Made by a program: the position numbers and the translations under genes
Source: Candidatus Zestomicrobium tamdykulense
GTDB taxonomy: Archaea > Thermoproteota > Thermoprotei_A > Sulfolobales > NBVN01
Length of the DNA: 64,000 nt
Direction: 5' to 3'
Assembly: GCA_039889305.1 (NCBI GenBank)
Contig: JAVVFV010000005.1
Coordinates: forward strand, 21,358-85,357
Shown here: in pieces, positions 1,753 through 33,921 of the stretch
Position numbering within the stretch: position 1 is the stretch's first letter
Layout of the letters: each line of letters starts with the position of its first letter
The notes under the pieces: generated by a model
Told to the model about the DNA's origin: nothing
The model's input: only the letters and a program-made list of their open reading frames with translations
Databases searched by the model: none

Positions 1753-1756
1753 CTAC

Positions 1757-3494: not shown

Positions 3495-3500
3495 TTTCTA

Positions 3501-8992: not shown

Positions 8993-9071
8993 CTCTATCC
9001 CCGTCCTAAAGAAGCTTTCAGTTATGATGAAACCCAACTTATAAAGCACTAAATCAAGTAACATTATTGGT

Positions 9072-9173: not shown

Positions 9174-9186
9174 CTAATCTGTCTCT

Positions 9187-10259
9187 CTAGTAGTCAAGAT
9201 ATTGCATAAATTCCCACGGCGTTACGTAGAGACAGTACTGATTCCATTCATTTGTTTTATATTCTATGAACGCATCAAATATATGACTTCCTAAAGTTTG
9301 ACGAATAATTTCGTCACTCTTCATCTCCTCTAAAGCTTCTTTAAGAGTTGTTGGTAGTTCTCTTATTCCGAGGGCTCCACGTCTTTCAGGAGTCATTTCA
9401 TAGATGTTTTCGTCAACAGGGTCTCCAGGATCAATTTTCTTTTTTATCCCATCAAGCCAGGCCATTAGAAGACATGCGAAAGCTAAGTAAGGATTGCAGG
9501 AAAGATCTACGCCTTGGTACTCCACCCGTTTTTGGTGAGCATGTTTTGGCCCCTTATAGTAAACTGGTATTCGCACTAAGGCTGATCTGTTGCGGCGAGA
9601 CCACGTGATGTAGATCGGTGCTTCAAAACCTGGCACTAACCGCTTATAAGAGTTTATTGTTGGACAACATACGGCTGTTAAGGCTCTAGCATGTTCTAAA
9701 AGTCCACCAATAAAGTATCTTCCGATTTGACTAAGTTCTGCGTACTCGTCGTTCTCATCATACATTTCGTTTTTCTCATTTCTCCATAACGATATATGGG
9801 TATGCATACCGCTCGCGTTATCGAAGTATATTGGTTTAGGCATGAAAGTTGCTATCAACTCGTATTTCTTAGCAACGTTTTTCGCTACAAACTTGAAGTA
9901 CATGACTTTATCAGCGGTCTCTACCAACGATCCAAAAGCAAAAACTATCTCAATTTGACTAGCTGCTACCTCATGATGATGTTTTTCTATTTTGAAACCA
10001 AAGTAATCCTCAAGTATCGAGGAAACCTCATTGCGATGCTTTACGGTTGTATCTTCTGGAGGTGGCCTGCAATACGCTTCTCTGTATTTAAGAACGGAAT
10101 TCCTAGAGTGATTTCTGGGCTGGCCTGAAGGTTCCAGACAAGCTTAGGTAGGTCAATTGAGGAGAATAGAAAATACTCTAATTCGGGAGCGAAGTACCCT
10201 GTATACCCTATTCCTTGAGCAGTTTCTGCAGTTTTTTCGCTACATAGCTTCTCGGGCAT
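9187..10259 (-). pseudogene. glnA: Glutamine synthetase (glnA) pseudogene: N-terminal domain missing, at least one frameshift
   Basis: C-terminal two thirds are intact (HHEVAASQIEI, ATFMPKP..ASGMHTHISLW, SYKRLVPGFEAP, NPYLAFA). The piece with APELEYFLF (10041-10259) is in another frame, with the shift near 10125-10135. Upstream there are only stop-riddled remnants. Confidence 0.8.
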
Positions 10260-10590
10260 GCCTTTTTAATGTTCTCCATTTAGTAATCCCCAGCATTCAT
10301 TTTACGAAAGGTTGTTCCCGCAACTTATATTTATGTTTTTTAAGACAATAGGACAAATCCCGTATGATTAGCTAATCAAAAGATAGGTTTAGGAAGAAGA
10401 ATAATGAACTAATTATCTAATTTTGTCGAAGTATATTCTTAGCTCTTGTCTCTGTAAGGTTGTGTCGGGTTCAGAAGCCTGGTCGACATCATTTAGTCAG
10501 GCCTTACAAGGTTCATCATTCGTGATTAGGTTCCTTACATTGCTTATAAAGTATTGAGATTTAGATAGTCTTGTTGACGTAAGACTATAT

Positions 10591-11220
10591 TTATTTGTTT
10601 ATTCTTAATGACTCTATTGTTTCTTTATTCACCATGGTTGATGCTTCCTGGTACCCTGCTTCGAAGAGCCTAATATTGAGTTCTCTAGTTCCTAGTTTGA
10701 GGACTTCGTTCAGTACTGTGTTCTTACTACTTATTATTGTTGCTTTCTCCAGGATGTAGGTCACGAACCCCAACATAACTACGTTAGCTCCTATAGTGCT
10801 GCCAAGCTTTAATGATATGTCAGATGCAGCAACTAGGTAGAAGTGCGGGGTTGTTTTCTTTATGCTACTGATTAATTCTTCTCTTGGGGGAATCTTCACA
10901 CCAGGTAATGATGGTCTGATGATCTTGTCATTAACTACCGATACTGTTTTCACGTTATGGAAGTAGGAGTATCTGGCTGCCTCAATAAGCTCCATCGATA
11001 TATGTAGGTTTACGTCGTCTTCAGGTGGTAAGGGCGCCATAATGGAATTCCCTATCCTCAAGAAAACTGTTACTGAACCTCCTCTCTGACTTAGTCCATG
11101 AATCTCTGATATTATTACTTTCAAGCCCTCATTAAGTGCTGCCTGACCCAATACTCTTGAAAGGGTTAATAATCCTTGACCACCAACTCCTGAGATCAAG
11201 GTGTTGAGCACCATACTCAC
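10591..11220 (-). CDS. iorB: Indolepyruvate:ferredoxin oxidoreductase subunit beta
   Basis: N-terminus ISGVGGQGLLT...SEIHGLSQRGG, typical of the 2-oxoacid:Fd oxidoreductase gamma-like/IorB fold. It overlaps the iorA stop by 4 nt. Confidence 0.85.
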   Translation of the reverse strand: MSMVLNTLISGVGGQGLLTLSRVLGQAALNEGLKVIISEIHGLSQRGGSVTVFLRIGNSIMAPLPPEDDVNLHISMELIEAARYSYFHNVKTVSVVNDKIIRPSLPGVKIPPREELISSIKKTTPHFYLVAASDISLKLGSTIGANVVMLGFVTYILEKATIISSKNTVLNEVLKLGTRELNIRLFEAGYQEASTMVNKETIESLRINK

Positions 11221-13112
11221 CTCCAGAACTTCTCAACCTCTTCTTTATCGTACTCTTTCTGAGGGATTATAGCTTTAGTTGGACATACCTGAGCACACGC
11301 ACCACAACCAATACATAGTTCTGGGTCGATCCACGCTTTCTTATTACTTCTAGGCATTATTGCTGGGCAGACAAACCAGTCATAACAGATACCGCAACCA
11401 ATACACTTATCTTCTAAGACTACGTAAGGAACTATCTCGACACCAGCTCTCCTAATATCTCTAATAACCTCCAGCGCGCACCTCCTCCTAGCAATTATGA
11501 CTGCCGGTTCCATATTTTCTCTGACGTAACTTAATGCCTTCTTGGTGACCTCCCTAACAGTCTTGATATCAAAGGGATCTATAACCTCAACAAACCTAAC
11601 ACCAAGTCCTGAAACCACGTTCTCTATAGGTATGTAGCGTGTTCCCTCACCGTCCTTGCTTGAAGGGGTTGGCTGATGACCTGTCATGGCAGTTATCTCA
11701 TTATCTAGTATTATTACAATTAGTGGTTTCCTATGCCATACAGCGTTCACGAGTGGTGGTAAGCCTGCATGATAGAATGTGGAATCACCTATTATAGCTA
11801 TCACGTTATCGTCTGTGGTTATGCTGAGACCATATCCAACCCCTATACTACTCCCCATCTCAATTATTATGTCCTGCATCCTGTATGGTGGGTTATACCC
11901 TAGCGAGTAACATCCTATGTCTCCTGAAGCGATGTAAGGTATTTTTTCTTGATTAACTAGTCTCCTTAACTCAAAGAATAGCGGCCTGTAGGGGCATCCT
12001 GGACAGAATGTAGGTATTCTATTAGGCACGTTAACTACGGGTTGGTTAAGTGTTTGAGGAGCTGAGTAATTAAGTCCTAAGAATTTAGCTATAGCTTTCC
12101 TGACTCTCAAATGATTTAACTCAAACTCGTAACCTACTAGGTCCTTACCTCTAACTTCTGCCTCAATCCTAGAATCATGAAGTACTGACTTAACGTTAGT
12201 CTCTACTAGTGAGTCGAGCTCCTCAATAACAAGTATCCTGTCAACCTCCTCAGCAGCTTCTATGAGTAGCTTCTTAGGTAACGGTACAGGAGTCCCTATC
12301 TTAAGAACTTTGACTTTATCCCTAATCTTGAAGTAGTCGAGTGCTTCCATCACGTAACTATACGCACCACCTGAAGCTATGATTAATTCTTTTCCATCAC
12401 CTTCAATCCTATTAAACGGGACTTCATTAACTACCTCAGAGATCGCGTCCCACTTCTCAAGTAACCTAATCTTGTTTTTCCTGGCAATAGCAGGCACAAC
12501 AACAAACCTGTCTTCTTTATTAAATTTCCCCCTAACCCTTACTTCCGGTATAGGCCCTAACTCTACAACCCCCCTACTGTGACTCACTCTAGTAGTAGTA
12601 CGCAGTATTACTGGGTGCTTAAACCTTCTGCTGAATTCAAAAACATACTTAGTCATCTTTTTTGCTTCATCAGCCTCGAAAGGCTCGAAAACAGGTATGT
12701 ATGCGTGAACCCCATACCACCTGTTGTCTTGCTCATTCTGACTACTATGCATGCTGGGATCATCAGCCGTAACAATAACCAAAGCTCCCTCGACACCTGT
12801 ATAGGCGGAACTCATTAAGGGATCTGCAGCGACATTCATGCCTACATGCTTCATAGCGGTTAACGCGTTAATGCCTGCTAAGGAAGCACCGTAAGCTGCC
12901 TCGAAAGCTACTTTCTCATTCACGCTCCACTCCGCATGGATACCGACAACATCTTTCACTGAAACCAGAGCCTCTAGAATTTCTGATGATGGTGTGCCTG
13001 GATACGCAGCAGCAAACCCTAAACCACCCTCTAAAGCTCCGCGAGCTATCGCCTCATTACCTAATAGCAAGTACCTACCACTACTTACACCCACAAGAGA
13101 CTTAAAACTCAT
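11217..13112 (-). CDS. iorA: Indolepyruvate:ferredoxin oxidoreductase subunit alpha
   Basis: 631 aa. TPP-binding region GDIGCY...GDSTFYH. Two C-terminal ferredoxin motifs, CIGCGICYDWFVCP and CIGCGACAQVCP. Confidence 0.88.
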   Translation of the reverse strand: MSFKSLVGVSSGRYLLLGNEAIARGALEGGLGFAAAYPGTPSSEILEALVSVKDVVGIHAEWSVNEKVAFEAAYGASLAGINALTAMKHVGMNVAADPLMSSAYTGVEGALVIVTADDPSMHSSQNEQDNRWYGVHAYIPVFEPFEADEAKKMTKYVFEFSRRFKHPVILRTTTRVSHSRGVVELGPIPEVRVRGKFNKEDRFVVVPAIARKNKIRLLEKWDAISEVVNEVPFNRIEGDGKELIIASGGAYSYVMEALDYFKIRDKVKVLKIGTPVPLPKKLLIEAAEEVDRILVIEELDSLVETNVKSVLHDSRIEAEVRGKDLVGYEFELNHLRVRKAIAKFLGLNYSAPQTLNQPVVNVPNRIPTFCPGCPYRPLFFELRRLVNQEKIPYIASGDIGCYSLGYNPPYRMQDIIIEMGSSIGVGYGLSITTDDNVIAIIGDSTFYHAGLPPLVNAVWHRKPLIVIILDNEITAMTGHQPTPSSKDGEGTRYIPIENVVSGLGVRFVEVIDPFDIKTVREVTKKALSYVRENMEPAVIIARRRCALEVIRDIRRAGVEIVPYVVLEDKCIGCGICYDWFVCPAIMPRSNKKAWIDPELCIGCGACAQVCPTKAIIPQKEYDKEEVEKFWR

Positions 13113-22161: not shown

Positions 22162-22239
22162 TGGCGGGCCCGCCGGGATTTGAACCCGGGACCTCCGGCT
22201 TAGAAGGCCGGCGCTCTGTCCTAGCTGAGCTACGGGCCC
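22162..22239 (-). tRNA. tRNA-Arg(UCU), CCA encoded
   Basis: The reverse complement reads GGGCCCG-TA-GCTC..GAGC-G-CCGGC-CTTCTAA-GCCGG-AGGTC-CCGGG-TTCAAAT-CCCGG-CGGGCCC-G-CCA. Confidence 0.92.
22223..22239. repeat. attL core: direct repeat AGCTGAGCTACGGGCCC (nt 1-17 of tRNA-Arg)
   Basis: Identical 17-mer at 33883-33899. It extends to 21 bp with one mismatch. Confidence 0.8.
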
Positions 22240-22260
22240 GATTTTTTTACTATCCGAACA

Positions 22261-22270
22261 TTTATATATT
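22261..22270 (-). promoter_or_regulatory. Putative TATA box now serving tRNA-Arg, supplied by the integrated element
   Basis: The minus strand reads AATATATAAA, 22-31 nt upstream of tRNA nt 1 (22239). Confidence 0.4.
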
Positions 22271-22298
22271 TCTTCCTCTCCTGTTTTCTTGATGAGCC

Positions 22299-23299
22299 GT
22301 GGAGAGGTTTAGTTATAGACATGCACTTTCTAAAAGAGCTCTGAGGCTATATGAAGATTACGCAGAAGTTAGGGCTTGGTTTGATGAGCTAAAGGTTTTG
22401 AGAAGTGGGAGAACAGCCCATGACTATTTGGATATGCTTGCGGGTTTTGTTGAAAGTTCTGGAAAATATCCTAAAGATTTAGTTAGGCTATCTTCCAACG
22501 AAGTATATGAAGTTTTGAGGAGATGGGCTTTATCTGAGCTTCGCAAAGGTTCCTACACCACTGGAAGACTTTACGTTTTGTGGAATGCTGTCAAAAACTT
22601 CTTAAAATTTCATGGAATTGAAGTGAAAAATAAACCGCCTTTTAAGAGAACTGTAAAATACCTGGACAAGATCCCAACGAAAGAAGAGTTAAGGCAAATT
22701 TTAAATGCGGCTTCAAGCCTTTCAACAAAAATCGCTATTGAGTTGATGTGTTATGGAGGGTTGAGACCAGAGGATATTTGTGATTTAACCTACGCAAGCA
22801 TAAAAATGATTTTGAAAAAGGAGTAAGTCCATGTGCAGTATTTGTTCCGCAGACAAAAAGCGACAGCGTCTACGTCACTTTCATACCAGAAACAACCGTT
22901 GAGCTTATTCACCAATATTTTAAGTTTAGGGAAAGCAAGAGAGAAAAAATAGTTGCTAAAAGCCCTATAATAGCTAACCCAAGATATCAAGGAAAAGGAA
23001 TTAGGAGAAAAACACTAACAGCAAAGATAGAAAGTGCTATTTCTAAAAGCGGAATTCAATCGCAGTTAACCCTTGGAAATAAGGTTCAGAGAATTAGACC
23101 CTACAGTTTGAGGAAATATTTCAGAAGCAACTTAACGGGACACGCTCCAAGCGAGTACATTGAGGCTTGGCTCGGCCACACCTCCGGATTGGAGCACGTT
23201 TACAGCGGAACAAGAGATTTAGACCCCTCCACAATTGAAAGAATGCGTGAAGTTTACAAAAGGTGCGAACCTTTCCTTTGGCCACAGCCCAACCATTAG
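22299..23299 (+). pseudogene. Tyrosine recombinase/integrase, interrupted by a single -1 frameshift near 22800-22822
   Basis: The N-terminal ORF (22299-22826) ends after the Arg-box YGGLRPEDICDL. The continuation is open in the -1 frame from 22784 and carries LRKYFRS, AWLGH and catalytic ..HVYSG. The shift lies in the A-runs ATAAAAATGATTTTGAAAAAGG. Confidence 0.8.
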
Positions 23300-24474
23300 A
23301 CCAAAATTCTCTAGTTACTGAAGCAAAAATAGAAGCCCTAAAAAGCATAGCAAAAAGCCTACTCGGCATAGATTTGCTGGAAGTTAAAATCGCTAAAGAA
23401 AAGGATGTTGGAAGAGAATTAAGCAAGGATGAAGAATTGGAGCTTTACGAGAAGGAGCTGAAAAAGCTCAGGGAAGGAAAACACAACCCACAAAGAATAG
23501 TGCACGAAAAAGAGCTTGAAAAATACTTGGCGGAAGGATGGCAATTCGTAAGTGTACTGCCCTCACGCAAAATCCTAATTAAAAAGCACAATGAATGGGT
23601 AGAAAATAATAAACTCATTTCTTGGGCTGAAAAGTTGGGCATAAAACTAAATGCAAATGGGAAGCTTGATGAAGGGCAGCTGTTTCAATTGTTTGTTCTT
23701 GCCATTTTATGGAATAACAAACCGACTTATAGAGCTGAGATGGGGGAGAAAATATTCAGGGAGATAAAGAGCGAGTATACCCTTGATAACTTTCAAAGAG
23801 CAGCTCAAGATAACAATATGGAAAATAGGATTAGGGAGATCGCAGCTGAGATCATCCGTAATACGCAAGTCTACAAATTGTTAATGTTCATTGCCAATGA
23901 AACACTTAATGGAAAAAACATTTGGACAATGATCAAAGAAATGCTTGAATTCCCCGTTATTGGCAATGAAGAAGATGATCTGAGAAGGTTAAAAGGACTC
24001 TATAAACTCTTTAACCCTCCATGCCATGATCGCAAAGCATTCCTCACTGTGAAAACCTTCATTATTTTTAGGGAAATTCGAATACAGTTTAGAGAAGTTG
24101 GAAAATATCAGTATCACCCGGTGATTTGTTGTGTTCCTGATAGTAATGTAAGAGAAGCACTAAAAGGTCTCGGTATTCTGGGTGATGTTAAAAATGATTT
24201 AAATAGCATGATAATGGCAAGCCGACTAATGGCGGACGCATTTTGCACAGAAGAATACGAGCTATACGATCTTCCTCTATTCTTTTGGCATAAAGAAGAG
24301 GGCAAATACCCTTCAATTGGATTCAGTAGCACGCAGCCAACGAAAGGCAAATATGCTGGAGTTTGCCCAAAATGCAGGTCACCTCTGGTGTGGCGTAGAG
24401 CTAAACGCACAAACGAAATTTACAGGGGCTGCACTAACTTTCCACATTGCAGATGGAACGATAGAAGCTATTAG
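23263..24474 (+). CDS. Hypothetical protein with C-terminal topoisomerase-type C4 zinc finger; central region weakly HhH-GPD-like
   Basis: C-terminus CPKCRSPLVWRRAKRTNEIYRGCTNFPHCRW matches the zf-C4_Topoisom pattern. The central LFQLFVLAILWNNKPTY...CVPDSNVREALKGLGILG is reminiscent of EndoIII-like glycosylases. The start overlaps the integrase 3' end, so the true start is uncertain. Confidence 0.55.
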   Translation: MRTFPLATAQPLDQNSLVTEAKIEALKSIAKSLLGIDLLEVKIAKEKDVGRELSKDEELELYEKELKKLREGKHNPQRIVHEKELEKYLAEGWQFVSVLPSRKILIKKHNEWVENNKLISWAEKLGIKLNANGKLDEGQLFQLFVLAILWNNKPTYRAEMGEKIFREIKSEYTLDNFQRAAQDNNMENRIREIAAEIIRNTQVYKLLMFIANETLNGKNIWTMIKEMLEFPVIGNEEDDLRRLKGLYKLFNPPCHDRKAFLTVKTFIIFREIRIQFREVGKYQYHPVICCVPDSNVREALKGLGILGDVKNDLNSMIMASRLMADAFCTEEYELYDLPLFFWHKEEGKYPSIGFSSTQPTKGKYAGVCPKCRSPLVWRRAKRTNEIYRGCTNFPHCRWNDRSY

Positions 24475-24532
24475 AACGATCTACCTGCAAGTTCATGCTT
24501 CTGTTAGGAGACATAAAAAGAAAATGGATTTT

Positions 24533-25036
24533 CTATACACTTTGCTTGGTCTCCTTTAAAGCTTCGCTGATTTGGCGATGGAAGAAAATAAAGATGATAA
24601 TTGTTGCAGAAGCTGTGTAGCTCGCAACGAGCAGCATGTTCATCATGTTAAATGCACTTAGGACGATATAAGATGCTCCTGCAATGATGGCTGCTCCAAG
24701 GATGGAGTAGATGCTTGCGGTCTTCCAGGCTCCCCATTTACGTGCAAGCTTTAGCCAACTCTTCCATTTCAGAAAGTCTTTTAACCTCAATGGCTCTGAA
24801 AAATCAGTCTCTTCAACCGCCTTGGCCAGTTGCTCATCCATCTCTCGCTTTTGAACAGCCATAACCCTCGGTAACATAGCAATACATGCCATACCTCCCA
24901 CAACGAGAAGAATAAAGGCTAAGAGGGCTTGGCCGAGAAGGGCCAAAGCAAAAACAGAGAGCATAAGAAAACCCACAATAGCCCCTACGTAATGGATCTT
25001 ATCCCGTTTTCGATGAGCCTGCCTAATGGAAAGCAC
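24533..25036 (-). CDS. Four-TM membrane protein, unknown function
   Basis: Two hydrophobic hairpins separated by a charged loop (QKREMDEQLAKAVEETDF). GTG start. Confidence 0.55.
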   Translation of the reverse strand: MLSIRQAHRKRDKIHYVGAIVGFLMLSVFALALLGQALLAFILLVVGGMACIAMLPRVMAVQKREMDEQLAKAVEETDFSEPLRLKDFLKWKSWLKLARKWGAWKTASIYSILGAAIIAGASYIVLSAFNMMNMLLVASYTASATIIIFIFFHRQISEALKETKQSV

Positions 25037-25241
25037 TACTGCAAAGACGCATAGAACAGCCAGAAAGAGAAAGGCGGATCCATTGAATATACGCCATGTT
25101 CTTTACTTCATCTTATCTAACTATTATTGTTTTTATTAGCATTTATGGCTTAGTTTTTGGTATCTTTTTGCAGAACAACATATCCGTTACGGGCAGAGTC
25201 CAGCTAATGCGCAGCTACGTAGCAACCAGGTTCTAGGTCTA

Positions 25242-25640
25242 TCAAGAATGGCGAGTGCGCTTCTCCAGTTTGTCTCCAAGGTAGGCTCCTAGTAAGTAAC
25301 AGGGTAACGCCAAGAATGCTGAGCTATCTGCACTTAAACCGAACACATGCCTTAGGGCAATCACGGAGATCCCCCATAAAAAGAAGCCAATCCAGAAAAT
25401 GCCGCCGAGGATGAAGATAACTCGACGGGTAATCTGCCATCTTCGGGGAGAGGTCCAAACGAAACGTCGGAGAGCGTAAGTTGAACCTACGAGCAACAAC
25501 GCGATGGCTGAGAATTTGACAGCTGTTTGGAGAGGAACATGGCCAGTCATATACCCCACCCACGAAATTATGACACAGAAAGTTAGAGCGATTAGACTGT
25601 AGAACAGAATTCGAGCTTTCCAGTAATTAGGCTTTCCCAT
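25242..25640 (-). CDS. Four-TM membrane protein, unknown function
   Basis: 132 aa with four hydrophobic segments. It lies directly downstream of the Cys-rich paralog. Confidence 0.55.
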   Translation of the reverse strand: MGKPNYWKARILFYSLIALTFCVIISWVGYMTGHVPLQTAVKFSAIALLLVGSTYALRRFVWTSPRRWQITRRVIFILGGIFWIGFFLWGISVIALRHVFGLSADSSAFLALPCYLLGAYLGDKLEKRTRHS

Positions 25641-25752
25641 CTTACCCTCACCTATTGTTTAAGTAAAAAAATAAAAAGGTTATGTGCATGGTTCAGACAT
25701 AGCAACTTAAGCCCACCCTCTCAGAGGTTGCAGTAGCATGTCTAAAAGGTCG

Positions 25753-26526
25753 TTACCCGCCACAACTGAGATAGCACACTATGTCACAAAAGTACCCCCA
25801 ATAGTCCCATCCGTAAGTTAACAGGTATAAACAAGCTACCAATAAACCACCGTAAGTTACAACGCCGCCAGCAAGGCATGCCGCTACTATCAACCCATAA
25901 GCACCCCAACAAGCGATATGACAGAAAAGATTACACCAGAAGTCGTCCATCAAGACTGCGGAGCTTTTGAGGATTTCTCTATCATATTCTTGTAGTTGTT
26001 TTCCTACCAGCCTAGACAGATATTTGGCTTCTTTCTCCATAGTGTAGTAGCCTTCTGCAAGTTGCATCAGCGTTTCGTCTCCGCTCTTCTCGTAGACCTT
26101 ACCTACCTCTTTGGCGACTTTGCCTAAGACGGCGTATAGTTGCGATAAAGTAACGGAAGAATTAAACTCGACAAACTCTAGTGATACGAGTTCAGATTTG
26201 CCTGCTGGCGCATAATTCATTACTGTGAAAGAGTGATTGTAGAATTCTGAGTTTTGTGGCGTAAGCGTTGTTAATAGGGTTAGGTTATATTCACGTTGCA
26301 CTATGTAGCTTAGGCTGTAGAATTGTATGGACGTTTTTTCTGCGGCGATTTCTGTGCAAACGAAGCTGGCTGTTCTGTTAATTTCATCTGTAAGTTCGTT
26401 ATAACTCCAAAGTAAAGTTTGGGTGACTGTCACTTCGTAGGCATCATCATCTACTTCATACGTTATCAGCGTTACTGTTTTGTTTTCGTTCTGTTCTATT
26501 GTTGTGGCTGTGATATTTGATGGCAT
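25753..26526 (-). CDS. Paralog of the sequon-rich domain of 26731-28137, with an 8-Cys hydrophobic C-terminal tail
   Basis: It aligns by eye to aa 200-385 of the larger protein (TVTLITYEVDD..YEVTVTQTLLW, QFYSLSYIV, FNSSVTLSQLY..LGKVAKE). The tail is FWCNLFCHIACWG...FCDIVCYLSCGG. Confidence 0.7.
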   Translation of the reverse strand: MPSNITATTIEQNENKTVTLITYEVDDDAYEVTVTQTLLWSYNELTDEINRTASFVCTEIAAEKTSIQFYSLSYIVQREYNLTLLTTLTPQNSEFYNHSFTVMNYAPAGKSELVSLEFVEFNSSVTLSQLYAVLGKVAKEVGKVYEKSGDETLMQLAEGYYTMEKEAKYLSRLVGKQLQEYDREILKSSAVLMDDFWCNLFCHIACWGAYGLIVAACLAGGVVTYGGLLVACLYLLTYGWDYWGYFCDIVCYLSCGG

Positions 26527-26561
26527 GTTAATGTTTGGGTATACCCAAAGATGTAACTCTA

Positions 26562-26723
26562 TTAAGTTTGTGTCGTTCTCTCTCGTATCAGCATAATTAT
26601 GCCAACAATAGCCATAAGTGCAAACAGAACTAGACCTAATGTTCTTTGGAATATTAGGTTTATCAACGCTCCAGAAATACCGAGGACAACCATAGACAAA
26701 GCAAGCCCTTTTGACTTCTGCAT
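26562..26723 (-). CDS. Small two-TM membrane protein (53 aa; the track ORF extends to 26786)
   Basis: MQKSKGLALSMVVLGISGALINLIF..LGLVLFALMAIVGIIMLI. The internal ATG avoids a 56-nt overlap with the upstream gene. Confidence 0.45.
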   Translation of the reverse strand: MQKSKGLALSMVVLGISGALINLIFQRTLGLVLFALMAIVGIIMLIRERTTQT

Positions 26724-26730
26724 CTGTTGC

Positions 26731-28137
26731 TTACCCCATTGGGCAGTCAATCCAACCCATAAATTCAGCGCACATGCAACAGGCATAGACGTGAGAAGCG
26801 AGACTTATTATACACGCCGAACAAGGTATTGTTATACAACCAATGCACCACCAGATAGTAAATATGGTTGCGCATGCAACAGCACACGCAGCACATGTAG
26901 CGCATAAAGGCACGGATAGATATGTTGTAAGTATCAAGCCTACGCAGAAGAAACAATCCCATATGTTGCCGCCATCTGCCAATAGTACAGAGCACTGGAT
27001 AATTTTTTTGTCATATACTTCGAGTTTTTCTTTTACTATTTTGGACAAGTGCTTAGTTTCGTCTCCTATGATGTAGTAATTTTGTGCAAATTGTCTAAGT
27101 GTTTTATCTTCGCTTTTTCCATAGGCTTTCCCCAACTCCTTGGCAACTTTACCCAACGCGAAATAGAGCTGTGATAAAGTAACTGAAGAATTAAATTCAG
27201 CAAACTCTAATGATATTAATTCAGACTTGTGTGCAGGTACATAGTCAATGATTGTGAATGAACTATTGAATGTTATAGAATTTAATTGCGTGAGCGTTGT
27301 GTGTATGGTTAAGTTGTATTCCTCATGATGAACAATGTAGCTTAGGCTGTAGAATTGTAGGGATATGTCTTCCGCCGCTATCTCTGTTGAGATGAACTTA
27401 GCTGTTCTGTTGGTTTTAGTGCTTGCCTCGTTATAATTCCACAGCAAAGTTTGGGTGACGAGCACCTCATAAGTTGTATCATTGGCTTCGTATGTTACAA
27501 GCGTTACCGTGCGTACTTCATCCTGCTCAAGCGTTGTAACCGCAATGTTTAAGGGTGTATTAGTGCTCGGAAGTTCTTGGTCTTGAGAACAGGATTGACA
27601 AACACAAGATGAGCCACTGGTTTGATATAGAAGTATAGGCTCTATGTTCGCCGATATATGTTTGCCAACAACGTTCACCGTAACATAGTGATAAGTGGTG
27701 TATATTGGGTAGCCTGCTTTTATCCATGCGGTTATTCCGCCGAGCATGTTGTAGACTTTTGTGAAGCCGTTGCTGGCGAGGATTTGGCATGCAATTTGGC
27801 TTCTTGAACCAGCCTTACAGTAAACTATTATTGGATCGTTTATATGCTCTTGCAGTTCGCTTATTCTATCTTCAAGCTCGTAAACTGGTACAAGAACAGC
27901 GTCATATAAATGCCCGAGATTGTATTCGCTCTGGTTTCTAACATCCAAAACAAGGCTTACTGTGCCTTTCTTTATCATTTTGTAAGCTGCATCAACGCTT
28001 ACGTCCTCATAAGCTCCAGCCCAAGACGCTTCAGCAAAAGCCTCAGGCACTGCAACAAAAGCAAGCAACAACACAGCCACAAGACCAACAGCAATCAACC
28101 TCTGACCACGCATCTCCAAAACAGAATAGGCCTTCAC
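26731..28137 (-). CDS. Secreted rhodanese-domain protein fused to a sequon-rich domain and a 15-Cys hydrophobic C-terminal tail
   Basis: Signal peptide RLIAVGLVAVLLLAFVAVPEAFA. Rhodanese region LVLDVRNQSEY..IIVYCKAGSRS..GGITAW. Many N-x-S/T sequons. The tail is CATCAACAVACATIFTIWWCIGCITIPCSACII..ACCMCAEFMGWIDCPMG. Confidence 0.75.
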   Translation of the reverse strand: MKAYSVLEMRGQRLIAVGLVAVLLLAFVAVPEAFAEASWAGAYEDVSVDAAYKMIKKGTVSLVLDVRNQSEYNLGHLYDAVLVPVYELEDRISELQEHINDPIIVYCKAGSRSQIACQILASNGFTKVYNMLGGITAWIKAGYPIYTTYHYVTVNVVGKHISANIEPILLYQTSGSSCVCQSCSQDQELPSTNTPLNIAVTTLEQDEVRTVTLVTYEANDTTYEVLVTQTLLWNYNEASTKTNRTAKFISTEIAAEDISLQFYSLSYIVHHEEYNLTIHTTLTQLNSITFNSSFTIIDYVPAHKSELISLEFAEFNSSVTLSQLYFALGKVAKELGKAYGKSEDKTLRQFAQNYYIIGDETKHLSKIVKEKLEVYDKKIIQCSVLLADGGNIWDCFFCVGLILTTYLSVPLCATCAACAVACATIFTIWWCIGCITIPCSACIISLASHVYACCMCAEFMGWIDCPMG

Positions 28138-28319
28138 CTATATACCTCCCTTAAATTCTGTTTTTTAGTATATAAAACTTTTGCAACTAATAATAAAACT
28201 CAATCCCAAGGCGAAACTTGCAACGTTAAAAATTTGCAATACCGCCTGTTCTGTTAGTAACGTTTAACCGAGAGGTTTAAATATTGCTGTCTTTCTGTTT
28301 TTCTGTTTGGGGGTGTGTT

Positions 28320-28760
28320 ATGGGAACTATAAGAAGTGAATATTCTATCGAGCAGTTTGAGGCTGCCCTGCAACGTTTTGCGCATCAGATTACTGACATG
28401 ATGCAGAGGATAGACAAGATGCACGTTAGTTCAGAAAAGATGGATGTCGACTTAGAATTCAGCTACGGCGTTAAAGGCGAGGTAATGAAGATATACGTGT
28501 CTTTTTACAAGAGGGATAAGCCGGACTCATGGGGAGAGTCGCTATCCTTCACAGTAGAGCCTAAAGACTACGTTGACAGCCCCCACATAACAAAAATCCA
28601 CTATGAAGGGGCAAACGACAAGCAGTACAGCGAGAAAATCCTAACATGGCTTAAAAGCCTCCTAGGCTCAGAAAAGCCTGCAGTATCCTTCTCGTTGAAG
28701 GATTTTTCAAAGAAGGTCAACAGGCGCCTTACAGACTACAAAGCTTTTTCGAAGGGTTAA
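28320..28760 (+). CDS. Hypothetical protein
   Basis: The ORF has protein-like composition and is first of three tightly spaced plus-strand genes. I prefer the start at ATG 28320. Confidence 0.5.
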   Translation: MGTIRSEYSIEQFEAALQRFAHQITDMMQRIDKMHVSSEKMDVDLEFSYGVKGEVMKIYVSFYKRDKPDSWGESLSFTVEPKDYVDSPHITKIHYEGANDKQYSEKILTWLKSLLGSEKPAVSFSLKDFSKKVNRRLTDYKAFSKG

Positions 28761-28762
28761 TC

Positions 28763-29173
28763 ATGGAATCCCTCGTAAGAATGTTTAGGGAATCCCTCTT
28801 CAAAGCATTTTATGATTGGCTTGAGAAGAATAAGACCGTTATAGGCGAGAAATGGTATGTTTATGCCTTCAACGAGGCTAAGAGGGCTGAGGATTTAGCC
28901 GACAACGCAGTAGGCATAATCGGCGCAGCCATGTGGATGTTCAACACGATGGCCAACTGCGGCGTAATGGCAGGTGTAGGCCCAAACGGATACAGCCTAC
29001 AATATCTGGAAAACACGAAAATCGACGAAGCCTCAACAAGAAGGCTCCTAACAATGATTGTGGCTTGCCTAAACCTTCAATACCTGCCCATTGAAGAGGC
29101 CAAAAAGCAAATCCCAATAATTAGCCGTGGCAAGTTTTCTCTGAAGCTTTTTGTTGAGGATAGGAAATCATAA
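28763..29173 (+). CDS. Hypothetical protein
   Basis: The ORF starts 2 nt after the previous stop. I recognise no motif. Confidence 0.5.
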   Translation: MESLVRMFRESLFKAFYDWLEKNKTVIGEKWYVYAFNEAKRAEDLADNAVGIIGAAMWMFNTMANCGVMAGVGPNGYSLQYLENTKIDEASTRRLLTMIVACLNLQYLPIEEAKKQIPIISRGKFSLKLFVEDRKS

Positions 29174-29208
29174 ATACCAGCTTGTGACATTGGGTTTATG
29201 GTGTTGGT

Positions 29209-29397
29209 ATGCCTAAGGGACCTGAATGGCTGACGGTTAGGCTGACTCCTGAGCTGATGGAGAAAATGAACTCTTATCTTCTGGCTGTGGCAAACAGAAT
29301 GGGACGCATACCCCAAGGGTTAAAAACCAGGATAGTGCATGAAGCCCTCGAGGAATGGTTCAAAAACCACGGCAGTGACCTCGAAAGGTTCACATAA
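29209..29397 (+). CDS. Ribbon-helix-helix (CopG/Arc-like) DNA-binding protein
   Basis: LTVRLTPELMEKMNSYL..., a beta-strand followed by two helices in 62 aa. Confidence 0.6.
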   Translation: MPKGPEWLTVRLTPELMEKMNSYLLAVANRMGRIPQGLKTRIVHEALEEWFKNHGSDLERFT

Positions 29398-29444
29398 CTT
29401 TTTCTATTTGGGGTGAAGCCCGTTGCCTAACAAACTCGGCTCAA

Positions 29445-29660
29445 TTATACTTTCCGCCTGTATAGCTCGCATTTCTCCGCAAAGTAGGGTGGAAGCTGGT
29501 CTGGCAGGACAGCGTTTCTGGGACACTTGTAACGTTTAACTATTTGCCCAGTGCTTGAGTCACCGCCCACCGTTTGTTCGAGAAGGCTGCAGCTCCAGCA
29601 TCGCGTCTTCTCTATTGGAACTTTAACTATGGTTTTAACCCTTCCCATGCAACCCCTCAA
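29445..29660 (-). CDS. Small Cys-containing (zinc-binding?) protein
   Basis: CWSC ... KCPRN ... KCELY spacing. It is the last gene of the minus-strand RadA/ParB operon. Confidence 0.4.
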   Translation of the reverse strand: MRGCMGRVKTIVKVPIEKTRCWSCSLLEQTVGGDSSTGQIVKRYKCPRNAVLPDQLPPYFAEKCELYRRKV

Positions 29661-29670
29661 CTTTTACATA

Positions 29671-29829
29671 TTAGGGGTGTGAAACCCGCTTCAGCCCTTC
29701 CTTAATTATTCTGTTGTATTTCTCGATGAGGGCTGAGTAGGCCTCCAAGTCCAAAGCCATCCGCTCAAGCTTCTCAGTGAGGGCCAAAAGCCTCCCATTA
29801 ACGTCCATGGTGTTGGCCCTTTTCAGCAT
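29671..29829 (-). CDS. Small helical ORF (52 aa), below the track cutoff
   Basis: My own translation is MLKRANTMDVNGRLLALTEKLERMALDLEAYSALIEKYNRIIKEGLKRVSHP. It fills the gap between the ParB-like gene and the Zn protein. Confidence 0.3.
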   Translation of the reverse strand: MLKRANTMDVNGRLLALTEKLERMALDLEAYSALIEKYNRIIKEGLKRVSHP

Positions 29830-29945
29830 TTAGGTGTTTTTCAACAGTTTCTACTGTGAGTTTTCCCCTTTCTGTGCGCCAAACTCCAGTTTTGTCTTCC
29901 ATGCCGAAAACGTCGGTTCTAGCGATGAAAATTTGGAAAAGCCTG

Positions 29946-31016
29946 TCAGCCAATGACTGGCTCTTCAAAACCTTTTTCTCCGGCCATTTTTATGGCTTTC
30001 TGGGCTACTTCCTCCCTCTCTTTTTCAGTTAGTTTTTCCCAGAAGACAACGAAGATTGATGCTTTAATGACGTCTTTCAAGTATTTGCCTTTGTATCTTG
30101 TGTATATGTAGTCGATTAGAATCATCGGGTAATGTTCTTTCAACTCCATGACTTTTTTGAAAGGCTCTTCAGGTGGCGCTGTTGCTTTCTCGGCTTCTTC
30201 TACAAGCAGAGGCTTTGGAAGATCAACAATTTTTTCAGCTAACTCTGGTTTTTGAGCCATCGCCTCAATAACCTTTCGAGCTTCTTTTGGCTTGAGTTTT
30301 TCACGTTTAACAACTTTAACGACTTTAACTGTTTTTTCTGGAGGTAAACCTTTCTCGATGGCTGCTTTGGCGAGTTGAGCCTCCCTTGTGGTTAGCTCTT
30401 CCTTCACAATAACCTCAGCTAATGCTTTCTGTTTTTCAGGCTCTATAACTGAGCCGATGATCTCGTAATGGAGGGGTGACAGCGCTGTCATCCCTGCTAA
30501 TAGCGTTTTTGCTTCCGGCGAAACCCTAACCCTACAAAGTATGCGTTCAACTTCTCTGTGGCTTATTCCAAACTTTTCAGCCATCTGGTCTATTCTCATC
30601 TTTTTAACTTCATGCAGATGGCGGAAGTATGCTGCCTCGCGAAGCGGGTCAACCGTTCCCCTCGCCTTGTTCTTCTTATAGTTTATTTCCAGCGCTTCTT
30701 CAGGTGTGCAGTCGGTTATTATGGCTCTTATCTGAGTCCAGCCGAGCTCCCTTGCGGCTCGCCAGCGTGAGTGCCCATCTACTATTTGGTATTTGGCTTG
30801 GCTCCACGGCTGCTTAGCCTTTATTTGGGCTATTTCTTCGGGTGTCAGCCTCCTTAGGAGGATTGGGTCTATCCTGTATAGACCTCTTGACTCCAGCCTT
30901 GTCATGTCTGTGCGCAGCATCATGTCCTCTTCTCTGCCTATGGCTGTGATGTTGCCTGGCAGTGGGATTATCTGCTCGAGGGGTATGTGCTCTATGCGCT
31001 GTTCACTCTGGGACAT
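29946..31016 (-). CDS. ParB/Srx-like N-terminal domain protein with HTH
   Basis: YQIVDGHSRWRAARELGWTQIRAII (ParB box) followed by HTH RIDQMAEKFGISHREVERIL. It overlaps the radA-like stop by 14 nt. Confidence 0.8.
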   Translation of the reverse strand: MSQSEQRIEHIPLEQIIPLPGNITAIGREEDMMLRTDMTRLESRGLYRIDPILLRRLTPEEIAQIKAKQPWSQAKYQIVDGHSRWRAARELGWTQIRAIITDCTPEEALEINYKKNKARGTVDPLREAAYFRHLHEVKKMRIDQMAEKFGISHREVERILCRVRVSPEAKTLLAGMTALSPLHYEIIGSVIEPEKQKALAEVIVKEELTTREAQLAKAAIEKGLPPEKTVKVVKVVKREKLKPKEARKVIEAMAQKPELAEKIVDLPKPLLVEEAEKATAPPEEPFKKVMELKEHYPMILIDYIYTRYKGKYLKDVIKASIFVVFWEKLTEKEREEVAQKAIKMAGEKGFEEPVIG

Positions 31017-31959
31017 CCTCTACACCAGCCTTTGTTATCATGAATTCCGTTGCGGCTCGTGGGAGGTAGCTGCTGGCTATGAGTGTTGCAACTCTCCTTG
31101 TTCCGGGTCCTATGGTTAGGTAGACGCGGTTTCCAATCATGTGGCTTACAACGTGTCCTCCAACAGGCGGGTTTAGAACCTCCGGCCTAACGTCATAGAC
31201 GTATCCAACGGGCGAGGCTAGAACCTGCTCGGTGGTTATGACTGCTATTCTGTAAACGCGTGCGTAGTTGAGGAGAAGCCTCAAACACCTGTTTATCAGC
31301 TGTTGTCGGGGGGCTAGAAGCTCCCTTCCAGGATATTCGGCTCTGAAGGGCGATACGAGGCTGTCAACGATGATTAGGCGGATGTTCCTTTCCCTTATGG
31401 GCTTGTGGGCGTTTTCAAGCAGGAATATCAAGTGCTCGCTGCTGTAGACTTTTGCATAATTCACCAGGGGGCATGTTTCTTCAGGGTTTAGGCCTCGAGC
31501 CTCAGCCATTTCATAGAGGCGTTTTGAGGAGAAGCTTCCCTCAGTGTCAAAGTATAATACGTTTCCGCCTAATCCGCCCTGCTCTGGCTTAAGCTGGGCT
31601 GTAACGCAGAGCATTAGGCAAAGCTGGGTTTTTCCAGAACCATACTGCCCCACAAGCTCTGTTATGGCCTGGGTTTCTATGCCTCCGCCTAAAAGATTGT
31701 CAAGGGCCTTGCTTCCAGTTGTGCACCTCAGCCTTCTTTTTGTCATTTCCCAGTGTTCGTAGGCTGTTATGAAACTGCAGCCTAAAGCCTGCCTTGCAGC
31801 CTCCACTATCCGTTGGGCAGCCTCAAGCTTTTCATAACCAGCCTTCTCCTTAACCTCCCTAGCTGGGGTGACAGCCAAAGTTTCAACGTTTGCAAAGCCG
31901 GCGTCCCTAAGCCTTTTGGCTATGGATTTGCCCACGCCAGGAATCTGCTCTAACTCCAT
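31003..31959 (-). CDS. radA: Full-length RadA-like recombinase (HhH N-domain + RecA core)
   Basis: LEQIPGVGKSIAKRLRDAGF (HhH), TTGSKALDNLLGGGIETQAITELVGQYGSGKTQL (Walker A), LIIVDS (Walker B), PVGGHVV. The ATG at 31959 lies 2 nt after the upstream stop. Confidence 0.85.
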   Translation of the reverse strand: MELEQIPGVGKSIAKRLRDAGFANVETLAVTPAREVKEKAGYEKLEAAQRIVEAARQALGCSFITAYEHWEMTKRRLRCTTGSKALDNLLGGGIETQAITELVGQYGSGKTQLCLMLCVTAQLKPEQGGLGGNVLYFDTEGSFSSKRLYEMAEARGLNPEETCPLVNYAKVYSSEHLIFLLENAHKPIRERNIRLIIVDSLVSPFRAEYPGRELLAPRQQLINRCLRLLLNYARVYRIAVITTEQVLASPVGYVYDVRPEVLNPPVGGHVVSHMIGNRVYLTIGPGTRRVATLIASSYLPRAATEFMITKAGVEDVPE

Positions 31960-31961
31960 CT

Positions 31962-32135
31962 CTAACCCTCCTTTGAGTGCGTGTGTTGGCCCCATTCAAT
32001 GTTGGTTTCTGCTATTTTGCTCCAGCAACGCCTGCAAATCGGAAGCCTATCACCCTTATAGACTATGAACACTTCTATGTCGGTGTTTCTGCATTTACCA
32101 TTCCATGGATTCCTACAACGCTCAATCCTAGACAT
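31962..32135 (-). CDS. Small Cys-rich zinc-finger-like protein (57 aa)
   Basis: MSRIERCRNPWNGKCRN...LPICRRCW. Only the C-terminal part of the 145-aa track ORF looks protein-like. Confidence 0.4.
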   Translation of the reverse strand: MSRIERCRNPWNGKCRNTDIEVFIVYKGDRLPICRRCWSKIAETNIEWGQHTHSKEG

Positions 32136-32382
32136 GTGTTCCACATCTCCTTGCTGTTTTCCAGCCGTTACCATGCAAACCAGCTTTGGCAAACTCTCTA
32201 ACAATTTCAATCTGATGATTTTGTAGAAACTCCTCAAGAGCTTCTTTCTGGCTTTGCCAATCATACTCATGGCTTGTAAATTTGCCCCAATAATGCGGAT
32301 GCCTATGCAGAAGCTGCAGGAGTAGTTTACGCTGGAGAACCGATAAGCCCTCAAGCTCCAAGCCCAAAGCTTCGGAGAGCAT
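32128..32382 (-). CDS. Small helical protein (84 aa), first gene of the RadA/ParB operon
   Basis: Protein-like composition (LSVLQRKLLLQLLHRHPHYWGKF..). Its stop overlaps the next start by 8 nt. Confidence 0.45.
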   Translation of the reverse strand: MLSEALGLELEGLSVLQRKLLLQLLHRHPHYWGKFTSHEYDWQSQKEALEEFLQNHQIEIVREFAKAGLHGNGWKTARRCGTHV

Positions 32383-32539
32383 AGGCGCTCAGCCTCCAAC
32401 CCAAAATTAGCGGTTTATGAAAGACGCTATAAAAAGGCAACGGCGAATCGACCTTTTTGAACAGTGGAGAGAGATAAGTTAAAGTGAAGTTTTGCACCTT
32501 ATTAATGCTGTATATTTAACCCTAAGGAGAAGCCGGAAA

Positions 32540-33205
32540 TTGAGTACACTTAAAAGGCAGGAAAGGAAAGCTGTGGTGACAGGAATCTCTGCAGCTGATG
32601 CAATAGACAGATATAGATATCGCCTTTCAAAGGAGTTGGGCTCAACAAAAGTTGAAGATAAAGGGCAATATGTACTTATGCATGAAAGGGTTCGTCTTCA
32701 AAACAAAGACTTTATGGACATTGTAGTTTATACAACAGACCGCATATACATATCTGCTTCTCCTTATGTGTCTGTGGAAAAATTTAACGAAGTAGCCACC
32801 AAAATTGTTCGTATAGCACAGGAAAGCGTGAAAATATTGGAGGAACTTCGTCCTATAACATTGTCAAGGGCTAAGAACATTTTGGAGTTCACTCTAAGAT
32901 TGAATGTTGAAGATGAATTTCAAAGAATGGTGGTAGTTATATTGGCTGACACAATAAATGAAATAGTTCTTAGGGAGGAAATGAAGGCAGCGGGGATTGA
33001 AGGGCCTCCTTTAGACGAGGGCATCCCTGAGAAAATAAAAAGGCTTAAAGATAAAGGAAAATTCATTCCTGAAGAAGAAGGAGTGAAAAATATTAGGGAG
33101 TTAAGAAATGGCATAGTCCACCGCGGAGACATCCCTGATAAAACTGAAGCTGCTAAGGCTCTAGAAATCACAAAAGCCGTGCTTAAGTGGTGCTTGAAAG
33201 AATGA
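32540..33205 (+). CDS. Protein with C-terminal HEPN-like Rx4H motif
   Basis: IRELRNGIVHRG sits in a helical C-terminal region. I prefer the TTG at 32540, preceded by AGGAG and a TATATTTAA box, but the track start at 32492 is possible. Confidence 0.55.
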   Translation: MSTLKRQERKAVVTGISAADAIDRYRYRLSKELGSTKVEDKGQYVLMHERVRLQNKDFMDIVVYTTDRIYISASPYVSVEKFNEVATKIVRIAQESVKILEELRPITLSRAKNILEFTLRLNVEDEFQRMVVVILADTINEIVLREEMKAAGIEGPPLDEGIPEKIKRLKDKGKFIPEEEGVKNIRELRNGIVHRGDIPDKTEAAKALEITKAVLKWCLKE

Positions 33206-33849
33206 CTGTGGAAAAAGTAAGCAAATATGAGGTAATAGTTGGTTCAGACGAGGCTGGAAAGGGCGAATGGCTAGGTCCATTGACGGTCGCAGCAGTAGCA
33301 CTTACGCCAGAGCAGAGCTCATATTTGGTTACACAAGGTGTGATGGATAGTAAGGAATTAAAAATTGATAGAATCATGGAGTTGTCTGGCATAATCAGGA
33401 AGGAATGTTTAAGCTATCATGTCATTGCCATAACCCCGAGAAAGTTTAACATGCTATTGAGGGAAGTGAAGAAGGAGGGAAAAAGTTTAAATGATATATT
33501 GGCTTGGGGACATGCTAAAGCAATATATGAAGTTTACCGGGAGCTGCAAAACAAGAAAATTTTGGGGAGAGTAAAGCTGGTGATTGATGAGTTTGACAAA
33601 TTAAAAACTGAGGAACGCTTAGGCAGGGTTCTTAAGTTAGCAAATTTTGACATAGAACAAAGACCACACGCAGAGGAGGAAACAGCAGTTGCAGCTGCAA
33701 GTATACTTGCTCGTGCAACAAGAGAATTTTGGATTGACGATGCTTCCAAGCGTTTACATTTAGATTTAAGAAAGCTTTCGGCGTCTGAAGCGTTAACCCT
33801 TAGGGATGCGGAATATTTTGCCAAAATAAGTTTTCTACATCCTATATGA
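33202..33849 (+). CDS. Type 2 RNase H-like protein, closest by eye to the RNase HIII catalytic domain (no N-terminal TBP-like domain)
   Basis: GSDEAGKGEWLGPLTVAAV, MDSKELK, ITPRKFN..LNDILAWGHAKAI, LVIDEFD, HAEEETAVAAASILARATREF. There is an ATGA start/stop overlap with the upstream gene. Confidence 0.7.
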   Translation: MTVEKVSKYEVIVGSDEAGKGEWLGPLTVAAVALTPEQSSYLVTQGVMDSKELKIDRIMELSGIIRKECLSYHVIAITPRKFNMLLREVKKEGKSLNDILAWGHAKAIYEVYRELQNKKILGRVKLVIDEFDKLKTEERLGRVLKLANFDIEQRPHAEEETAVAAASILARATREFWIDDASKRLHLDLRKLSASEALTLRDAEYFAKISFLHPI

Positions 33850-33882
33850 ATACCTATGTTCGAATAGGATTTTTCCTATCCA

Positions 33883-33899
33883 AGCTGAGCTACGGGCCC
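33883..33899. repeat. attR core: second copy of AGCTGAGCTACGGGCCC (orphan 5' fragment of tRNA-Arg)
   Basis: Identical to 22223-22239. Confidence 0.8.
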
Positions 33900-33921
33900 C
33901 TACATGTGATATGCTTAGCAG

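Follow-up and report, generated by a model that had tools for sequence, protein, structure and literature searches.

Gene content and nature of the locus

The window analysed here is a stretch of 64,000 nucleotides (nt) from the archaeon Candidatus Zestomicrobium tamdykulense (assembly GCA_039889305.1, contig JAVVFV010000005.1, forward-strand positions 21,358 to 85,357), and positions are those of the window unless another record is named. At 29946-32382, on the minus strand, it carries four tightly packed genes, which encode an 84-residue protein, a 57-residue protein, a RadA-type recombinase and a ParB-like protein, and which lie within an element integrated in a tRNA gene (Table 1). The radA gene appears to be a recombinant of two mobile-element RadA lineages, designated A and B, with an in-frame crossover within the codons of the DTEG motif.

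The preliminary description of the locus had read a RadA homologue with a helix-hairpin-helix (HhH) N-domain, a RecA core and a PVGGH region, on which the open reading frames (ORFs) and an end-to-end structure alignment agree. It had also placed two tiny genes before radA with overlapping or abutting ends, and they are found to overlap each other by 8 nt, the probable radA start lying 2 nt past the stop of the second. The 14-nt overlap (31003-31016) of radA with the gene of a 356-residue ParB/Srx protein containing a helix-turn-helix (HTH) is likewise borne out by the ORF and by family scores above their cut-offs. Although the longest radA frame encodes 330 residues, translation more likely begins with M13 (31959): this start gives a product of 318 residues, follows a GGAGG located 8 nt upstream and is also the one used in the public annotation. 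The leader in front of the 84-residue protein contains a TATA-like TTTTTATAG near 32426-32434, as read from the sequence.

The insertion extends from 22240 to 33899 (11,660 bp) in tRNA-Arg. These limits follow from a genome of the same genus (G001), in which the TIM–tRNA side is joined precisely to the right flank, window position 22239 to 33900, with a 24-nt overlap that corresponds to the att core; it is an exact empty site. A 17-nt exact direct repeat occupies 22223-22239, the first 17 nt of the tRNA, and 33883-33899. The empty site, the att repeats and the tRNA together place radA inside a real integrated element, as had been proposed. The whole element gave no match to GenBank phages by megablast.

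A second radA, which the preliminary description had suggested looking for elsewhere in the genome, is present on contig C9 and is canonical (Rad51, 319 bits), with 43% identity to the window RadA. The window gene is thus neither the sole radA of its genome nor one that branches vertically, since the phylogeny places it in mobile-element clades. No radA of the element type occurs in any of 30 relatives, 9 of them from the same genus, and none of their proteins exceeds 46% identity to the window protein. That the window RadA is a second, non-vertical, full-length RadA, in all appearance horizontally acquired, is supported by these comparisons. In five of the relatives (G013, G015, G016, G028 and G029), which belong to the family or order of the host, the canonical radA lies in frames of 497-864 residues with the RadA match split in two, probably by inteins inserted after the Walker A region.

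The RadA protein

The window RadA matches Pfam Rad51 with 225.8 bits, and HHH_5 with 25.6 bits (E=1.8e-5), slightly below the cut-off of 27. It aligns end to end with Pyrococcus furiosus RadA (1pzn; 250 bits, residues 13-327), the alignment covering the Walker A motif GQYGSGKT, DTEG, the Walker B motif LIIVDS, FRAEYPGR, RQQ and PVGGH. Residues 13-70 align with the N-domain of 1pzn, and SFITA occupies the FxxA position. As GQYGSGKT, DTEG and LIIVDS align with both 1pzn and the S. solfataricus structure 2bke, the Walker A motif, the catalytic Glu and the Walker B motif are intact. Given the retention of the ATPase and L1/L2 motifs and the end-to-end alignment with solved structures, the RadA fold is likely to be active. 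In line with this, the ratios of nonsynonymous to synonymous substitution (dN/dS) of all four genes against their nearest relatives are 0.03-0.16.

With canonical archaeal RadA (1pzn, 2bke, family NF003301), the window protein shares its full length, the order of HhH N-domain, FxxA motif and RecA core, the Walker A and B motifs, the catalytic Glu, the Arg residues of L1 and the GGH of L2. It differs in not being the host orthologue, in belonging to a separate clade, in being borne by a mobile element and in its A/B mosaic structure. Its C-terminal half has TEQ instead of TNQ, SPFR instead of SHFR and an L2 loop 5 residues longer, this lengthening being conserved in clade A, within which both L1 and L2 are strongly conserved. 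On NF003301 (cut-off 259 bits) the window protein scores 313 bits, the host canonical RadA 472 and pure A-type proteins 253; on TIGR02236 (cut-off 361) the window protein scores 297 bits and the host canonical RadA 452.

Two other identities were considered and rejected. A short paralogue of the RadB/aRadC kind is at odds with the presence of the N-domain and with RadB model scores of 101 and 72 bits, far under the cut-offs. The inactivated RadA homologues (iRadA) described in the PolB2-arCOG07300 operon (Makarova et al. 2014, PMC4104785), one of which is located on the thaumarchaeal integrated element NitGar-E5 (PMC6563490), were ruled out because the Walker A and B motifs of the window protein are intact. 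These families resemble the present case in that a RadA-family member is encoded in a compact, conserved operon beside tiny helical proteins. In iRadA, RadB and aRadC, however, the ATPase motifs are disrupted and/or the N-domain is missing, whereas the window RadA has both, and family scans of the proteins of its element found no PolB, PolB2 included.

Mosaic structure of radA

Around 60 protein clusters share 50-70% identity with the window RadA, more than any canonical RadA does. The two halves of the protein resemble different lineages. Residues 14-157 are 94% identical to the B-type protein P0003 and 39% to the A-type protein P0001, while residues 158-330 are 97% identical to P0001 and 38% to P0003. 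The same change is seen at the nucleotide level. The B-type locus L005 matches the window from 32488 to 31505 with 85% identity, through the promoter, both tiny genes and the 5′ half of radA; the A-type loci L034 and L040 match it from 31557 to 29829 with 86-88% identity, through the 3′ half of radA, the whole of parB and the first part of a primase gene. The switch lies between ACTGAGGG and AAGC, where alignment of the parent types shows only about 8-14 shared identical nt. Trees of the separate halves place the N-terminal half in clade B (support 100) and the C-terminal half in clade A (support 99).

Each lineage has its own motifs: ELEQIPGVGK, GQYGSGKTQ, SHFR and VTNQ in the B family, and EEPL.KLKSL, GPYESGKTE, SPFRAEYPGRELLAPRQQ, TTEQ and a longer conserved L2 in the A family. 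The Walker A letters GQYGSGKT, noted earlier in place of the usual GEFGSGKT, were correctly read; they are no peculiarity of this protein, being the ordinary Walker A of the B lineage, where the A lineage has GPYESGKT. A first whole-protein tree had joined A and B in one clade (support 99), a grouping discarded as an artefact of including the chimera. In trees without the chimera, which are quick trees with long branches, A and B are not sisters: B stands beside a clade containing the canonical cdc6-linked radA of Bathyarchaeia, and A forms a separate long branch.

In the preliminary description radA formed an operon with parB, preceded by the tiny genes. The layout is as described, but the four genes are not one ancestral operon: both tiny genes, together with RadA residues 1-157, derive from a B module, and residues 158-330 and ParB from an A module.

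Table 1. Positions of the genes, gene parts and attachment sites discussed, in window coordinates
Feature	Position	Strand	Basis or remark
84-residue helical protein	32128..32382	-	B-module partner; 8-nt overlap with the 57-residue ORF
57-residue C4 zinc-ribbon protein (CxNPWNGxC...PICxxCW)	31962..32135	-	B-module partner
RadA-like ORF, 330 residues	31003..31995	-	longest ORF starts at 31995
RadA N-terminal part: HhH, FxxA, Walker A GQYGSGKT, DTEG; B origin	31521..31959	-	identities, nt match, tree
RadA C-terminal part, about residues 158-330: Walker B, L1, TTEQ, extended L2; A origin	31003..31520	-	
Crossover interval within the LYFDTEGSFSS codons	31505..31557	-	overlap of B- and A-type nt matches
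ParB-like protein, 356 residues: ParB/Srx N-domain, HTH, helical C-domain	29946..31016	-	obligate partner of A-type RadA
Archaeo-eukaryotic primase (AEP) primase-polymerase remnant, first 49 codons	29822..29968	-	479 nt deleted relative to L040
Promoter/leader of the B-type module	32383..32488	-	nt match to L005 reaches 32488
71-residue Cys-rich protein, 3′ of the primase remnant	29445..29660	-	homologous 68-residue ORF in L114/L116 (G112 element)
Backbone operon: proteins of 158 and 136 residues, 62-residue ribbon-helix-helix (RHH) protein	28284..29397	+	found together with the A-type module
Tyrosine integrase gene with a single frameshift close to an A5 run at about 22805-22826	22299..23299	+	Pfam and three-frame translation
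tRNA-Arg(UCU)	22162..22239	-	tRNA search
attL, att core where the tRNA-Arg(UCU) gene has its 5′ end	22216..22239	.	direct repeat and G001 empty site
attR, second att core, a 5′ fragment of the tRNA gene	33876..33899	.	direct repeat and G001 empty site

The A module: RadA linked to ParB

The A-type loci compared comprise 27 metagenomic loci (≥50% identity), one species genome and one more; five of the contigs end within about 200 nt of radA. At each of the 24 others, where the sequence past radA can be read, the A-type radA is directly followed by a parB gene of one and the same family, so that the pair is a conserved unit and not a chance adjacency. The preliminary description, which had taken the two genes for a pair and proposed a survey of their neighbourhoods, is confirmed on this point. 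The start and stop of the two genes overlap by 14 nt in the window, L034 and L006b, and by 4 nt in L030/31. On the 5′ side of radA there is usually a protein of about 55 residues of the RHH type, sometimes an AbrB-like protein or an acidic protein of 103-108 residues, and in most loci this repressor-like RHH or AbrB gene is translationally coupled to radA.

The window ParB scores above the cut-offs of three families: ParB_N (30.1 bits, cut-off 26.3), HTH_ParB (25.9, cut-off 22.6) and NCBIfam TIGR00180 (65.9, cut-off 58.45). Among solved structures it is closest to Noc and ParB, with 72 bits for Noc 7nfu. The partition-type motif GERRxRAA has become DGHSRWRAA, which retains nothing of GERR but its final Arg, and ENLQR has become NYKKNKARG. 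With ParABS cassettes and the Noc/ParB CTPases (7nfu, 6t1f, 6sdk), the unit shares the ParB/Srx N-domain, the HTH and a parB coupled 3′ of an NTPase gene; it differs from them in having RadA instead of ParA as the NTPase and in the loss of the GERR and ENLQR motifs. This ParB family is rare: of 401 genomes sampled across the phylum, 3 encode it. LAGLIDADG homing-endonuclease genes directly follow parB in L030 (4849-5295), L060 (1447-1893) and L045 (2448-3104).

A stand-alone AEP primase-polymerase of 211-216 residues is encoded directly after ParB in L040, in L105 (a Bathyarchaeia metagenome-assembled genome, MAG) and in G112, a genome from the phylum of the host. The L040 protein matches Pfam AEP-TOTE with 56.6 bits and appears to be followed by an SF2-helicase-like gene; in G112 the primase gene is intact (211 residues). 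Contig C25 of G112 (L116) is collinear with window 28295-31557, including the plus-strand operon that ends in the RHH gene and the gene of 71 residues, and is 88% identical to it in nucleotide sequence over 28295-29647. In crenarchaeal plasmids of the pRN type, CopG-Rep operons consist of an RHH regulator followed by a primase-polymerase replicase. The A module resembles these operons in that a small RHH gene leads an operon containing an AEP primase-polymerase, and differs from them in the interposition of RadA and ParB and in its small, stand-alone primase without a fused helicase.

The B module and its two tiny proteins

In the B module the 84-residue helical protein is followed by the 57-residue C4 zinc ribbon, by the B-type RadA and usually by a basic protein of about 90-100 residues, a putative small DNA-binding protein. 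The zinc ribbon has four invariant Cys within the invariant pattern CxNPWNGxC...PICxxCW...EW. Its gene lies directly 5′ of the B-type radA in L005, L007-L010, L012/13, L036 and L037, and homologues of the 84-residue protein lie 5′ of the zinc ribbon in L005, L007-L010, L036, L037 and L006. Both families, with 30 protein clusters for the zinc ribbon, none of them annotated, and 53 for the 84-residue protein, all hypothetical, are found mostly in Bathyarchaeia MAGs.

AlphaFold2 models are helical for the 84-residue protein, with a predicted local distance difference test (pLDDT) value of 72, and reach a pLDDT of 73 for the 57-residue protein. A fold search of both models against the PDB gave no match with E<1, and neither protein matched Pfam, PHROGs, NCBIfam or PADLOC. 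For the zinc ribbon, Foldseek returned weak, non-significant matches to small archaeal ribosomal zinc-ribbon proteins, and some homologues (P0381, P0382 and P0385) carry the JGI label ‘ribosomal protein L40E’. A role of the zinc ribbon as general radA partner in Bathyarchaeia was considered and rejected, the chromosomal cdc6-linked radA (P0096) having none upstream.

Mobile-element context of the relatives

Full-length RadA genes of archaeal mobile elements form at least two sizeable clades. A full-length RadA within an integrated element, described earlier as unusual, is not a one-off. Large tyrosine integrases are encoded a few kb from clade members in L006 and L008-L012, a provirus with a tail-tube gene is represented by L011/L035, also present in IMG/VR, and helicase genes adjoin further members. 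B-type genes occur in three IMG/VR contigs and A-type RadA in none. Defence-type neighbours are BREX PglZ/BrxL with AbiEii (L012), a STAND-like ATPase with HEPN (L036) and BrxC/D (L007).

Condition of the window element

In the window, ParB, RadA and both tiny proteins are encoded by intact genes, and the regulator and the N-terminal half of RadA of the A type are replaced by B-type parts. The element is decaying. Its primase is reduced to a remnant: the L040 AEP aligns by tblastn (80% identity) over residues 1-49 only, and L040 2733-3211 has no blastn counterpart in the window. Pfam Phage_integrase matches the N-terminal piece of the integrase, and three-frame translation shows that the catalytic C-terminal part is encoded further on in a different frame. 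The frameshift lies in or adjoins an A5 run and reflects either true pseudogenization or a sequencing error in the homopolymer. As a consequence of the primase deletion and the integrase frameshift, the element is probably immobilized. Whether the hybrid RadA is active is uncertain.

Possible functions of the module

Among the functions proposed for the pair, the genetic context favours replication and recombination. An even chance is given to a module by which the excised element is replicated and repaired through recombination, in which site recognition would fall to ParB, strand opening or invasion to the A-type RadA and the start of synthesis to the primase-polymerase. In intact A modules, ParB would mark a site on the element, at which the A-type RadA, as an ATP-dependent filament former on single-stranded DNA, would make or stabilize a D-loop or an opened duplex. 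The primase-polymerase would prime synthesis at this opened site, and the RHH protein would autoregulate the operon. The excised element would in this way replicate and be repaired in a recombination-dependent manner, much like phages that use UvsX or RecA-like proteins. Phage recombinases of the RecA family (T4 UvsX, RecA/Sak4-type) are likewise RecA folds that are borne by mobile elements beside their own replication genes, and the window RadA matches PHROG 97, ‘UvsX-like recombinase’, with 59 bits over the core. The present proteins differ from them in being of the archaeal RadA type with HhH, in having an obligate ParB-like partner and not mediators of the UvsY or SSB type, and in residing on archaeal integrative elements.

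Several observations weigh against a replication and repair module. The order of an NTPase followed by a ParB/HTH protein, with strict linkage, also fits a partition cassette exactly. The primase follows ParB in some A-type loci only, RadA and ParB being the sole invariant core, and a search near four A-type modules for centromere, origin or parS-like repeats yielded only weak two-copy repeats, which is weak evidence. The window element looks defective, with its primase deleted and its integrase frameshifted, and the exact 318-residue hybrid product is found in one contig only among the public records compared. The dN/dS values (0.13 for parB against L040) span whole lineages, not the time since the crossover, and do not demonstrate a working hybrid.

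The main rival reading, though an unlikely one, is that the A-type RadA and ParB form a non-canonical partition system, in which ParB would bind a centromere-like site, RadA would replace ParA as the motor and the RHH protein would be the autoregulator. ParM and TubZ are unrelated filament formers that serve as partition NTPases, and such replacement of the partition NTPase has thus occurred before. The translational coupling of the two genes in the order NTPase then ParB/Srx-HTH at all 24 loci, the small RHH or AbrB gene upstream, the TIGR00180 (ParB/RepB/Spo0J partition) score and the kinship with Noc and ParB all agree with a partition system. A partition motor would not need the conserved L1/L2 loops for single-stranded DNA nor the N-terminal DNA-binding domain of the A-type RadA, however, and the motifs by which partition ParB proteins bind and hydrolyze CTP are altered, GERR to GHSR and ENLQR to YKKNK. 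No arrays of parS-like repeats were found near A modules, partition matters less for carriers with an integrase such as L006b and the window element, and the primase directly after ParB in the closest relatives also speaks against it. Improbable, too, is a DNA-damage sensor controlling induction of the element, in which RadA on single-stranded DNA would release or inactivate the RHH/AbrB repressor or ParB. A repressor-like gene is indeed coupled upstream of RadA in most A-type loci, and there is a precedent in SSV1, in which, according to the part of PMC10123103 consulted, which cites the finding, the RHH regulator F55 forms complexes with the host RadA that dissociate after ultraviolet irradiation. 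A sensor would nevertheless leave the obligate ParB and the primase unexplained, a diverged copy kept for sensing only seems costly when the host RadA is available to every element, and in the window two B-type genes have taken the place of the RHH gene. The slightest chance is given to defence or anti-defence cargo with no part in the replication of the element itself, which might, for example, act on host recombination or on competing elements as a decoy or inhibitor. It is suggested by the defence-type genes beside L012, L036 and L007, but these neighbours occur at B-type loci only and differ from one locus to another, whereas A-type loci have the invariant ParB, with the primase in the closest relatives. 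PADLOC gave no meaningful match (only a weak one of RadA to mad8, 24.5 bits), and the ATPase and DNA-binding motifs are of the working-recombinase type.

Apart from the function of intact modules, the hybrid gene of the window might itself be a non-functional relic, or a chimera created when two elements occupying the tRNA-Arg site in different cells were assembled as one. The integrase frameshift, the primase deletion and the failure to find the exact product in an independent assembly give this possibility an appreciable, though minor, weight. The frame is nonetheless intact across the junction with all motifs kept, ParB and both tiny genes are intact as well, and the roughly 8-14 nt shared at the crossover are fewer than the usual assemblers would need for a k-mer misjoin, which argues against a misassembly of this type. 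The locus as a whole is of a known kind, that of mobile-element recombinase modules of the RecA family, and there is a real chance that the RadA–ParB pair is mechanistically new. A bolder and rather doubtful proposal is that the A-type RadA and ParB constitute an undescribed two-protein machine, in which a ParB/Srx site binder would load or regulate a RecA-family filament; this would be a new class of partition system or, with a minimal primase-polymerase, an origin-independent site-directed initiator.

Significance

Recombinases borne by mobile elements are well known in phages and, to our knowledge, hardly documented in archaea. The present comparison points to distinct mobile-element lineages of full-length, apparently active RadA, which extend across elements of the Bathyarchaeia type and have reached a crenarchaeon. 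One of these lineages is locked to a ParB-like partner and offers a concrete, laboratory-testable pair for replication initiation or DNA segregation. The hybrid gene would exemplify modular exchange, in which diverged recombinase genes are swapped within the coding sequence at a conserved motif. For RadA/Rad51/Dmc1 phylogenies, unrecognized mobile copies could pass for ancient paralogues.

In the open-access subset of the literature to which the search was confined, no description was found of mobile-element clades of full-length RadA, of a RadA–ParB operon or of the module formed by the 84-residue protein, the zinc ribbon and RadA. RadA is annotated in some haloarchaeal virus genomes, and a second RadA clade has been reported in some Asgard MAGs, with no link drawn to mobile elements (10.1101/2025.05.23.655837). 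If RadA and ParB do form a two-protein machine, the full-length RadA genes of mobile elements would make up a reservoir, its members recombining with one another and possibly with the host radA, which could account for some of the extra Asgard RadA ‘paralogues’ (bioRxiv 10.1101/2025.05.23.655837).

Other genes of the host and of related loci

The window element has a divergent RNase H gene of its own at 33187-33849 (Pfam RNase_HII, 83 bits); the canonical RNase HII of the host (151 bits) is encoded on the same contig outside the window (G000:C23:15077-15655). A second gene with a ParB_N domain is present in the genome at G000:C41:14153-14383 (L003), in a frame of 257 residues (35 bits).

Among the relatives, locus L006 (JGI Ga0315312_1000131, 1-11400) has two RadA modules 6.4 kb apart on one 119-kb contig. 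The first consists of an 84-residue-like protein, a zinc ribbon, a RadA resembling the canonical one of Bathyarchaeia, a protein of 108 residues and a DEAD helicase; the second consists of an RHH protein, an A-type RadA, ParB and an integrase of 448 residues, and abuts a ribosomal-protein operon. The B-type module of L007 (508-7060) has as neighbours two genes of the TGT family, one with DUF5591 and one for an ATPase resembling BrxC/BrxD, which may represent a 7-deazaguanine DNA-modification cluster on a mobile element. In L005 (GCA_038884015.1, JAVZKZ010000016.1, 10226-15783), a record labelled Jordarchaeales although this taxonomic label is doubtful, a PolB of the protein-primed type (DNA_pol_B_2) and Cas1 are encoded 1-6 kb from the B module, a neighbourhood that looks casposon-like.

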